This document shows positions 40,910-44,986 of a DNA stretch of 64,000 nucleotides, in pieces. Location: contig OX597820.1 of NCBI GenBank assembly GCA_951406725.2, positions 62,992,001 to 63,056,000 of the forward strand. Direction: 5' to 3'. The DNA is from Octopus vulgaris (taxonomy: Eukaryota). The first letter of the stretch is position 1; the number at the start of each line of letters is the position of its first letter. The notes beneath the pieces are model-generated. The model was given only the letters and a program-made list of their open reading frames with translations. It did no database searches and had not been told where the DNA came from. The position numbers and the translations under genes are program-made.

Positions 40910-41196
40910 TTAATACAGTTCTATATTCAAGAGATGAGGAATTATATACATTATTTACATTATTTACATTTGACGGATATTTGTCCTCATCTTGTTTGTT
41001 GTTAACACAACATTTCGGCTGATATGCCCTCCAGCCTTCATCGGGTGTGTTGGGGAAATTTCGAACCTGGGTTCTCATTTCTAAAGTATATTTCGATGTT
41101 ATTACTATTATTACTATTATTCAGGTCACTGCCTGGAATCGAATTCGTAATCTTGGGGTTAGTAGCCTGCGCTCTTAACCACTACGCCATATGCCC
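40910..41196 (-). mobile_element. Composite element: tRNA-like head (41196-41121) + short (AAT) linker + HHR module (HHR 41005-41048)
   Basis: Head GGGCATA-TGGCGTAGTGG(A box)...ATTCGATTCC(B-box-like). HHR ACAC-CCGATGA-A-GGCTG-GAGGGCATAT-CAGCC-GAAA-TG-TT-GTGT. Confidence 0.75.
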
Positions 41197-41368
41197 GTAT
41201 GTTCGATTCCAGGCAGTGGCCTGAATAATAGTAGTAATAATAATGATAATAATAATAATAATAATAATAATAATAATAATAATAATAATAATAATAATAA
41301 TAATAATAATAATAATAATAATAATAATAATAATAATAATAATAATAATAATAATAATAATAATAATA

Positions 41369-41574
41369 GACAAATACATAACAAAAACACCAGGACTTAC
41401 AAACACATATAACATACAGAAAATTGCACTACTAGGCACTGCACACATCCTACGCAGAACACTTTCCATACAATAACCATCAGAGCATCACAACAAATCA
41501 CAGCACATACCCAAGGCACACAGAGCTGTGCTCGGTAGTGAAGTGAAATCACGCTATAAAAATAAAACTACTGA
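41369..41574 (+). mobile_element. 5'-truncated Dong/R4-type element in (AAT)n
   Basis: DKYITKTPGLTNTYNIQKIALLGTAHILRRTLSIQ* plus 3' UTR ending 'ctactg'; (AAT)n on both sides. Confidence 0.82.
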
Positions 41575-44445
41575 ATAATAATAATAAAAATAATAATAAT
41601 AATAATAATAATAATAATAATAATAATAATAATAATAATAATAATAATAATATTATATTATTATATTATTATTATTATTATTATTATTATTATTATTATT
41701 ATTATTATTATTATTATTATTATTATATATATTAATAATAATAATAATAATAATAATAATAATAATTATATTAATAATAATAATAATAATAATAATAATA
41801 ATAATAATAATAATAATAATAATAATAATAATAATAATAATAATAATAATAATAATAATAATAATATATTAATAATAATAATAATAATAATAATAATAAT
41901 AATAATAATAATAATAATAATAATAATAATAATAATAATAATAATAATAATAATAATAATAATAATAATAATAATAATAATAATAATAATAATAATAATA
42001 ATAATAATAATAATAATAATAATAATAATAATAATAATAATAATAATAATAATAATAATAATAATAATAATAATAATAATAATAATAATAATAATAATAA
42101 TAATAATAATAATAATAATAATAATAATAATAATAATAATAATAATAATAATAATAATAATAATAATAATAATAATAATAATAATAATAATAATAATAAT
42201 AATAATAATAATAATAATAATAATAATAATAATAATAATAATAATAATAATAATAATAATAATAATAATAATAATAATAATAATAATAATAATAATAATA
42301 ATAATAATAATAATAATAATAATAATAATAATAATAATAATAATAATAATAATAATAATAATAATAATAATAATAATAATAATAATAATAATAATAATAA
42401 TAATAATAATAATAATAATAATAATAATAATAATAATAATAATAATAATAATAATAATAATAATAATAATAATAATAATAATAATAATAATAATAATAAT
42501 AATAATAATAATAATAATAATAATAATAATAATAATAATAATAATAATAATAATAATAATAATAATAATAATAATAATAATAATAATAATAATAATAATA
42601 ATAATAATAATAATAATAATAATAATAATAATAATAATAATAATAATAATAATAATAATAATAATAATAATAATAATAATAATAATAATAATAATAATAA
42701 TAATAATAATAATAATAATAATAATAATAATAATAATAATAATAATAATAATAATAATAATAATAATAATAATAATAATAATAATAATAATAATAATAAT
42801 AATAATAATAATAATAATAATAATAATAATAATAATAATAATAATAATAATAATAATAATAATAATAATAATAATAATAATAATAATAATAATAATAATA
42901 ATAATAATAATAATAATAATAATAATAATAATAATAATAATAATAATAATAATAATAATAATAATAATAATAATAATAATAATAATAATAATAATAATAA
43001 TAATAATAATAATAATAATAATAATAATAATAATAATAATAATAATAATAATAATAATAATAATAATAATAATAATAATAATAATAATAATAATAATAAT
43101 AATAATAATAATAATAATAATAATAATAATAATAATAATAATAATAATAATAATAATAATAATAATAATAATAATAATAATAATAATAATAATAATAATA
43201 ATAATAATAATAATAATAATAATAATAATAATAATAATAATAATAATAATAATAATAATAATAATAATAATAATAATAATAATAATAATAATAATAATAA
43301 TAATAATAATAATAATAATAATAATAATAATAATAATAATAATAATAATAATAATAATAATAATAATAATAATAATAATAATAATAATAATAATAATAAT
43401 AATAATAATAATAATAATAATAATAATAATAATAATAATAATAATAATAATAATAATAATAATAATAATAATAATAATAATAATAATAATAATAATAATA
43501 ATAATAATAATAATAATAATAATAATAATAATAATAATAATAATAATAATAATAATAATAATAATAATAATAATAATAATAATAATAATAATAATAATAA
43601 TAATAATAATAATAATAATAATAATAATAATAATAATAATAATAATAATAATAATAATAATAATAATAATAATAATAATAATAATAATAATAATAATAAT
43701 AATAATAATAATAATAATAATAATAATAATAATAATAATAATAATAATAATAATAATAATAATAATAATAATAATAATAATAATAATAATAATAATAATA
43801 ATAATAATAATAATAATAATAATAATAATAATAATAATAATAATAATAATAATAATAATAATAATAATAATAATAATAATAATAATAATAATAATAATAA
43901 TAATAATAATAATAATAATAATAATAATAATAATAATAATAATAATAATAATAATAATAATAATAATAATAATAATAATAATAATAATAATAATAATAAT
44001 AATAATAATAATAATAATAATAATAATAATAATAATAATAATAATAATAATAATAATAATAATAATAATAATAATAATAATAATAATAATAATAATAATA
44101 ATAATAATAATAATAATAATAATAATAATAATAATAATAATAATAATAATAATAATAATAATAATAATAATAATAATAATAATAATAATAATAATAATAA
44201 TAATAATAATAATAATAATAATAATAATAATAATAATAATAATAATAATAATAATAATAATAATAATAATAATAATAATAATAATAATAATAATAATAAT
44301 AATAATAATAATAATAATAATAATAATAATAATAATAATAATAATAATAATAATAATAATAATAATAATAATAATAATAATAATAATAATAATAATAATA
44401 ATAATAATAATAATAATAATAATAATAATAATAATAATAATAATA
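41575..44445. repeat. ~2.9-kb (AAT)n array, nearly pure, with a short (ATT)n strand switch at ~41652-41727
   Basis: Directly visible; the true length may differ if assembly is unreliable here. Confidence 0.95.
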
Positions 44446-44449
44446 GTAA

Positions 44450-44700
44450 TGTGATGCTCTGATGGTTATTGTATGAAAAGTGTTCTGCGTAGGATGTGTG
44501 CTGTGCCTAGTAGTGCAGTTTTGTTTTCTTTCACATATAACATACAGAAAATTGCACTACTAGGCACTGCACACATCCTACGCAGAACACTTTCCATACA
44601 ATAACCATCAGAGCATCACAACAAATCACAGCACATACCCAAGGAACACAGAGCTGCGCTCGGTAGTGAAGTGAAAGCACGCTATAAAAATATACTACTG
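44450..44700 (+). mobile_element. 5'-truncated Dong/R4-type element with a 5' inverted duplication
   Basis: 44532-44700 is the same 3' end as 41404-41574; 44450-44522 is the reverse complement of ~44548-44620. Confidence 0.82.
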
Positions 44701-44834
44701 AATAATAATAATAAATATATTAATAATAATAATAATGATAATAATAATAATAATAATAATAATAATAATAATAATAATAATAATAATAATAATAATAATA
44801 ATAATAATAATAATAATAATAATAATAATAATAC

Positions 44835-44986
44835 TAACATCGCAAAATATCTTAGGAATGAGAACCCAGGTCCGAAATTCCCCCAAGACATCTGATGAAG
44901 GCTGTAGGGTAAATCAGCTAAAACGTTGTGTTAACAGCAAGCAAGATGAGGACAAATGTCCGTCAAATGTAAATAATGTATATAAT
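44835..44986 (+). mobile_element. HHR module of the tRNA-head composite element (HHR 44888-44931, G12 mutated to A)
   Basis: ACAT-CTGATGA-A-GGCTG-TAGGGTAAAT-CAGCT-AAAA-CG-TT-GTGT; colinear with the reverse complement of ~40945-41100. Confidence 0.75.

Follow-up and report, generated by a model that had tools for sequence, protein, structure and literature searches.

A tRNA-headed hammerhead repeat of Octopus vulgaris with the insertion marks of a non-autonomous Penelope-like element

Introduction

What kind of mobile element joins a tRNA-like head, an (AAT)n linker and a hammerhead ribozyme (HHR) motif, and why has one such linker grown to several kilobases? The question is raised by a stretch of 64,000 nucleotides of the Octopus vulgaris genome (GenBank assembly GCA_951406725.2, contig OX597820.1, positions 62,992,001 to 63,056,000 of the forward strand), which we call the window and in which two units of this build face one another head to head. 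A sequence-only reading of the window took them for two copies of a ribozyme-bearing short interspersed element (SINE) whose linker acts as a built-in landing pad for Dong, a TAA-specific long interspersed element (LINE), thereby seeding giant (AAT)n arrays. Our analysis instead points, with good confidence, to a tRNA-headed, non-autonomous Penelope-like element (PLE), for which transcription by RNA polymerase III (Pol III) and self-cleavage are predictions. Statements on published work refer throughout to excerpts of the cited papers.

Results

The segment from 40909 to 44983 is a single insertion of two inverted arms within one 15-bp target-site duplication (TSD; Table 1). The two repeats of the TSD, identical at 13 of 15 positions, flank both arms on the outside, a point that the sequence-only reading had missed. 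That reading had the two units in the right places and orientation; they are not two copies, however, but two arms of one PLE-type insertion. Its description of the minus unit as head, AAT linker and HHR module proved accurate (the linker measures 21 nt), as did its placing of two Dong-like 3' ends and a giant (AAT)n array within the plus linker. Alignment further confirmed that the plus arm opens at 41201 with the B-box half of the head and that its tail, 86.5% identical to the minus-arm tail, resumes at 44836, beyond a linker of 3.6 kb (41224-44835). Because one TSD surrounds both arms, 41201 and 44836 are tied to one arm even without long reads, as that reading had supposed. The left-flank junction was crossed by contigs of two sequencing runs with different organism labels (X1 and X4); as it was present in both, no empty allele was seen in these runs. 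In independent runs, loose ends accumulate where the short arm ends (40941-40956) and display the GGGCAT leader.

Table 1. Features of the insertion and its flanks, in window coordinates
Feature	Position	Strand	Remarks
Left TSD	40894-40908	+	13/15 identical to 44984-44998
Long arm, 190-nt tail module	40910-41100	-	one-sided PLE-type tail extension in the final ~40 nt (about 40910-40950)
Minimal type I hammerhead motif, minus copy	41004-41049	-	core mutation U4>C; cleavage predicted between 41009 and 41008
Long-arm (AAT)n linker, 21 nt	41101-41121	-	
tRNA-Arg-like head	41122-41196	-	starts with GGGCATA at 41196; A box 41189-41179, TGGCGTAGTGG; B box 41145-41135, ATTCGATTCC, G>A relative to the usual GTTCGATTCC; best match own tRNA-Arg(TCG), z 9.6, 0/200 shuffles as high
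Arm-arm junction, remnant of self-complementary leader	41197-41200		
Short arm, 5'-truncated head (B-box half)	41201-41223	+	
(AAT)n, first part of short-arm linker	41224-41367	+	
Dong/R4-like LINE 3' end no. 1	41368-41573	+	young: 100% identical copies elsewhere
Giant (AAT)n array (TRF)	41574-44450	+	perfect run of 2,574 bp at 41871-44444; short inverted (ATT)n patch at 41665-41724
Inverted (fold-back) copy of part of Dong 3' end	44450-44522	-	
Dong/R4-like LINE 3' end no. 2	44532-44700	+	
(AAT)n, last part of short-arm linker	44701-44835	+	
Short arm, tail module lacking last ~40 nt	44836-44983	+	hammerhead motif 44887-44932, core G12>A
Right TSD	44984-44998	+	13/15 identical to 40894-40908

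The window insertion belongs to a large repeat family. Searches of the 2.8-Gb genome returned at least 3,177 candidates for the tail and at least 1,404 for the head, and an unbiased sample of 120 stretches of 10 kb (1.2 Mb of random sequence) contained nine element loci, three heads and 23 Dong-end hits (about 21 elements). This extrapolates to about 21,000 element loci (95% confidence interval (CI) 9,600-40,000) and about 54,000 Dong ends. Among heads with a complete 3' end, 59 of 66 ran through an (AAT)n linker into the tail, and head, linker and HHR module are thus a linked family, as the sequence-only reading had supposed. The linkers of these 59 copies measured 7-542 bp (median 43), none coming near the kilobase size seen in the window. 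A nearby tail was absent for the other 7 heads; four of these were followed to 9 kb, none regained a tail, and at least three had other repeats in or after the linker, so that a separate, Dong-mobilised SINE consisting of head and (AAT)n was not established either way. Loci were single units or inverted pairs, and direct tandem units with an HHR were not found among them; at L046 and L060 two units lie close together, yet not as arrays. The tail also contains a second B-box-like motif upstream of the hammerhead (window 41055-41072, minus strand).

The two arms of the element differ in a regular way. PLEs are marked by an adjacent inverted, 5'-truncated copy, by a tail of 30-40 bp on one end and by an HHR (PMC8557442), and the element likewise has an inverted 5'-truncated copy joined at the 5' end and a 30-40-nt tail on one end only. 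We found 40 head-to-head inverted pairs versus 25 single tail hits. On first classing, one long and one short arm were present in 34 of the 40 pairs; long arms ended at tail position 179-191 in 39 pairs and short arms at 133-161 in 38, and the median length difference between the arms was 38.5 nt (n = 40 pairs). A direct repeat, mostly of 12-14 bp, surrounds both arms, with a TSD score of at least 9 in 28 of 40 pairs compared to 13 of 1,560 mismatched-flank controls. Exact full head-to-head junctions numbered 195, against none for a reversed control. An inverted leader of at least 4 nt stood before 37 of 63 heads, with both AC and GT loops occurring on the sense strand (seven of these loci had been picked for their junction).

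At L333, L335-L337, L044, L047 and L051, the inverted leader extends for ~17-25 nt before the head and then gives way to unrelated or truncated sequence. The resulting 40-nt perfect hairpin may mark the 5' end of the transcript.

These arms and ends bear on two other origins. An ordinary SINE mobilised by a LINE would have the tRNA-like head, the length below 700 bp and TSDs of 12-14 bp, as made by L1-type enzymes, and the head shares the ending CTG(AAT)n with Dong; its inverted pairs would then reflect twin priming or two separate insertion events at the same site. Twin priming yields non-overlapping pieces, whereas here both arms contain the same 3' region, one TSD lies around both and the asymmetry is fixed at ~38 nt. 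Moreover, unique sequence forms the end of the copies and the TSD comes next, with neither poly(A) nor the simple-repeat 3' tail and partner LINE that belong to a SINE (PMC3531059), and the tail gave no match to the Dong 3' end, so that we regard this origin as very improbable. A fold-back or MITE-like (miniature inverted-repeat) DNA transposon, with the two tails as terminal inverted repeats, would account for the palindromic build and the TSDs, but hardly for ends that are asymmetric and ragged, arms that are variably 5'-truncated, TSDs of variable length and the many single arms; it is extremely unlikely.

Both the head and the hammerhead were assigned by motif and alignment tests. Among 12 of the genome's own tRNAs, the best match of the head is tRNA-Arg(TCG) (z 8-10, with 0 of 200 shuffles as high), and a tRNA was not called in the head by Rfam (at gathering and E-value thresholds) or by ARAGORN. 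With about 290 bp and this head, the element agrees with the part of the SINEBase definition that requires a short sequence (<700 bp) and a Pol III RNA-derived head (PMC3531059). The 3' end of a LINE-mobilised SINE is lacking. A terminator is absent in the window arm and in three of four other copies. CTG(AAT)n closes the head as well as the Dong 3' end (41122-41101, minus strand, and 41567-41576, plus strand), only three letters being common to them, and the head and linker may have started as a tRNA piece copied by Dong that landed in a PLE repeat.

The tail module has the features of a minimal HHR, whose defining traits are a bulged base preceding helix II and a helix III that is palindromic (PMC4209133): the bulged base is present, together with G10.1-C11.1 and the palindrome ACGU. 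Across 31 copies, 96.8% of cells were paired, compared to 19-52% when the pairing was slid, and a minimal-HHR descriptor matched copies of the element and no shuffles, in line with a minimal type I motif. The intact 36-nt core occurs in 1,427 exact copies, and both window hammerheads fail the descriptor (U4>C in the minus copy, G12>A in the plus copy). RNAcofold did not return a dimeric hammerhead. In 5 of 20 loci with truncated arms, an arm starts at tail position 89-96, near the predicted cut (p about 0.04, with a test window chosen post hoc). Exact palindromic junctions just 3' of the cut were present at 23 loci, whereas two control palindromes on the 5' side of the cut gave 2 and 1; this junction palindrome has 8 bp versus 6 bp in the controls and the junctions show microhomology, which can explain the excess. 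Among the loose-end peaks listed from contigs, none lay at the cut site. These signals are suggestive, and whether the ribozyme cleaves in vivo appears to us about evenly balanced.

We then considered the inserts in the plus-arm linker. They belong to a reverse transcriptase (RT)-bearing LINE with TAA tails, which we take to be Dong/R4, although no search returned that name. Relatives carry PF00078, a zf-RVT match fell below the cut-off, AAT tails follow 51 ends, and the inserts thereby agree with the Dong/R4 pattern of an RT and zinc-knuckle open reading frame (ORF), a TAA tail and a TAA target; a search of the PDB gave no match to the Dong fragment. The two ends in the window are 97% identical. 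Since end no. 1 has 100%-identical copies elsewhere and the arms are only 88-94% like other copies of the element, Dong likely arrived later. A recently active Dong-R4 has been reported in an octopus (PMC13282606). A third, older Dong 3' end lies outside any element, at window 31575-31787 (minus strand), with a 160-bp TTA tract.

A linker that serves Dong as a landing pad would draw on the known targeting of TAA repeats by Dong (PMC3812793), and insertion into the linker does occur, in the window and at two further loci (L002/L265 and L302). At the start of contig C1, moreover, two of five further long perfect arrays adjoin Dong-like coding sequence on their 3' side (one by BLAST, one from translation). 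The measured frequencies argue against a dedicated pad. Dong was found in 2 of 102 other element loci (CI 0.2-6.9%; flanks of 0.7-10 kb, at least eight loci having no linker), a share (~2%) no greater than expected from the fraction of (AAT)n tracts that linkers make up. None of 52 other Dong-end hits lay inside the element, which agrees with chance (P=0.39), and the element adjoined 3 of 167 (AAT)n tracts taken at random. Several Dong ends sit within other Dong copies instead, and linkers have been entered by other repeats too. Neither head nor tail adjoins any of the five C1 arrays, AAT tracts reach at most 244 bp after heads (n=74) and 334 bp after Dong ends (n=51), no linker among the 59 linked copies exceeds 542 bp, and the window supplies only 793 of 119,429 perfect 198-nt matches. 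The proposal of a LINE-type SINE that attracts Dong to a built-in pad and so seeds giant arrays was thus not borne out, and we consider it highly unlikely. The Dong and giant-array part of the locus is ordinary nesting, the Dong pieces and the 2.6-kb AAT run being likely later, chance additions.

The giant run itself is best described as a rare local expansion, possibly inflated in assembly. A partial artefact of assembly or of long reads, affecting this run and the fold-back next to it, would fit the perfect purity over 2,574 bp, the inverted ATT patch and fold-back Dong piece alongside, and a largest tract of only 456 bp in the 1.2 Mb of random sequence. However, the TSD ties both flanks to a single insertion, C1 has a further perfect run of at least 1,722 bp, and 5 of 172 sites distinguish the two Dong ends, which are therefore not one read copied twice. 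We judge such an artefact, which would concern the array only, unlikely though far from negligible.

Finally, we looked for PLEs that could supply enzymes to the element. Endonuclease-bearing PLEs are abundant and intact in the genome (PF01541 search), including a young Neptune-type family of 781 aa. In the Neptune-type families among the 50 loci compared, the hammerheads of the pseudo-long terminal repeats (pLTRs) are of another (U3-A8) type, and no sequence is in common with the tail. Two PLE loci (L244 and L259) hold the element only as separate insertions.

Other repeats were noted in the window and the sampled loci. Neptune-type PLE ORF fragments, with 27-50% identity to the 781-aa family, lie at window 6193-7293, 21908-23370 and 51143-52087, the first in an inverted arrangement of its own with 48-bp duplicated units at 6099 and 7291. 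At L241-L244, a young Neptune-type PLE has an upstream ORF of ~480 aa before the 781-aa RT/GIY-YIG ORF, direct pLTRs and the U3-A8 hammerhead variant; PLEs with two ORFs are unusual. A second repeat family of ~220 bp with a minimal hammerhead occurs at window 28291-28512 (core 28370; no tRNA head in this copy) and 9297-9506 and at L139, L204 and L227; it is very common in the fetched loci and ends at (TA)n. A short, retrozyme-like tandem repeat with the U3-A8 variant was seen at L262:1300-1850, where it lies within the element's linker, and at L095, L155 and L229. The window also contains a 493-bp unit repeated 2.9 times at 99% identity (12406-13818) and a 3.6-kb degenerate (ACAT/ACAC)n array (23964-27616).

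Discussion

The insertion marks on the element make Penelope, and not a LINE, the likely host of this SINE-like parasite. A protein of the PLE Poseidon has been found to cut and extend both strands, starting inside the RNA at two sites whose distance equals the tail, and its activity is independent of HHR cleavage (PMC11167929). In the cycle that we propose for the octopus element, Pol III would start from the A and B boxes and read beyond the end of the element, which lacks a terminator in most copies inspected, and a PLE reverse transcriptase with its GIY-YIG endonuclease would copy the RNA. The protein would cut AT-rich DNA with a stagger of 12-14 nt, and each cut strand would then prime cDNA synthesis on an RNA of its own, starting from either of two internal sites ~38 nt apart (tail ~150 and ~188). 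Because priming would be internal, neither a 3' tail nor a terminator would be needed. The two cDNAs would extend toward one another and join through microhomology or through the self-complementary 5' leader (ATGCCC-AC/GT-GGGCAT), and joining through the leader would rebuild full head-to-head copies with two promoters. In the window, young Dong/R4 copies would later have landed in the (AAT)n of one arm, just as they would in other TAA tracts, and the intervening run would then have expanded by slippage or been over-assembled.

Several observations weigh against this account. For the 25 single tail hits, the fetched flanks showed no inverted partner, and a clear TSD was absent in 12 of 40 pairs. 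Most loci studied were best BLAST hits, only nine coming from the unbiased sample, and well-kept copies are therefore over-represented. Core letters of the hammerhead are kept in 49 of 115 sampled copies only; among 31 copies no compensatory change was found and covariation was no higher than in shuffles, and Rfam does not call the hammerhead at gathering or E-value thresholds. Contigs of run X15 (presumed RNA, unstranded) cover the element and not its flank, a pattern that cannot tell Pol III transcripts from read-through. An autonomous PLE with the tail was not found, BLAST and nhmmer detecting no homology in 50 GIY-YIG loci (30 + 20, taken from 150 scored of 6,136 candidates), nearly all of them Neptune-type as judged by the zinc finger, with Poseidon-type families unsampled.

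SINEs are defined as parasites of LINEs, and the element would extend the tRNA-promoter strategy to a third class of retroelements. We further hold it possible, with slightly more doubt than belief, that it represents a class of SINE with a PLE partner that works as a self-rebuilding, two-promoter palindrome, in which the hairpin leader anneals both cDNAs and restores both Pol III heads and the hammerhead cuts some transcripts in vivo, leaving arms that start at the cut site. If so, its roughly 20,000 loci would document both-strand priming by PLEs in nature and provide a ready source of long double-stranded RNA. The 290-nt family offers thousands of events from which to learn how PLEs complete an insertion and come by their inverted ends, as well as a minimal RNA template suited to the in vitro PLE assay already available. 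Another implication is that PLE parasites are among the sequences annotated as unclassified SINEs in cephalopods. In the excerpted literature (including PMC8967140 and bioRxiv 10.1101/596502) we found no tRNA-headed PLE parasite, Repbase, Dfam, the octopus repeat library and the OK/OR1 sequences being outside this comparison, and an entry for the sequence may exist already, perhaps among unclassified SINEs.

Among known systems, the window inserts resemble Dong/R4 LINEs in their RT-family relatives, zinc knuckle, and TAA tail and target, with nothing unusual. The octopus SINEs OK, OR1 and OR2 were reportedly described by Ohshima and Okada in 1994. Like these and other tRNA-derived SINEs, the element has a tRNA-Arg-like head and a similar size and copy number; unlike them, it has no LINE-type 3' tail. 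OR2 is a CORE SINE (PMC4758252). Helenus, Ajax and Cassandra likewise carry the head of a small-RNA gene on a non-autonomous element of a non-LINE class, but are long terminal repeat elements (PMC10886601). In the schistosome repeats Sm-alpha and Sj-alpha, a Pol III promoter is also followed by a hammerhead within a short repeat; these are tandem multimers whose cleaved monomers lose the promoter (review PMC6765202), whereas the octopus element keeps it in most copies, has an HHR of the minimal PLE type and bears PLE marks at its ends. Animal non-LTR retrozymes are similarly short and non-coding, have type I HHRs and are proposed to be PLE parasites, but they are defined by direct tandem units and circular RNAs, and a tRNA head is not described in the excerpts (PMC7229834; bioRxiv 10.64898/2026.07.22.740005).

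The closest likeness is to PLEs themselves. Non-autonomous PLEs, for example Chlamys elements such as MRC1 (PMC8557442), and the Poseidon element PAc (PMC11167929) share the inverted 5'-truncated arm, the one-sided tail of 30-40 nt and the minimal HHR, and PAc also shares the ATG in the HHR core, the cut site and two end points being downstream of it. Unlike these elements, the octopus element begins with a tRNA-derived A/B-box head and a microsatellite linker, and it occurs as dispersed inverted dimers rather than as head-to-tail pLTR tandems. By analogy with these systems, it behaves as a non-autonomous PLE with a putative SINE-type promoter.

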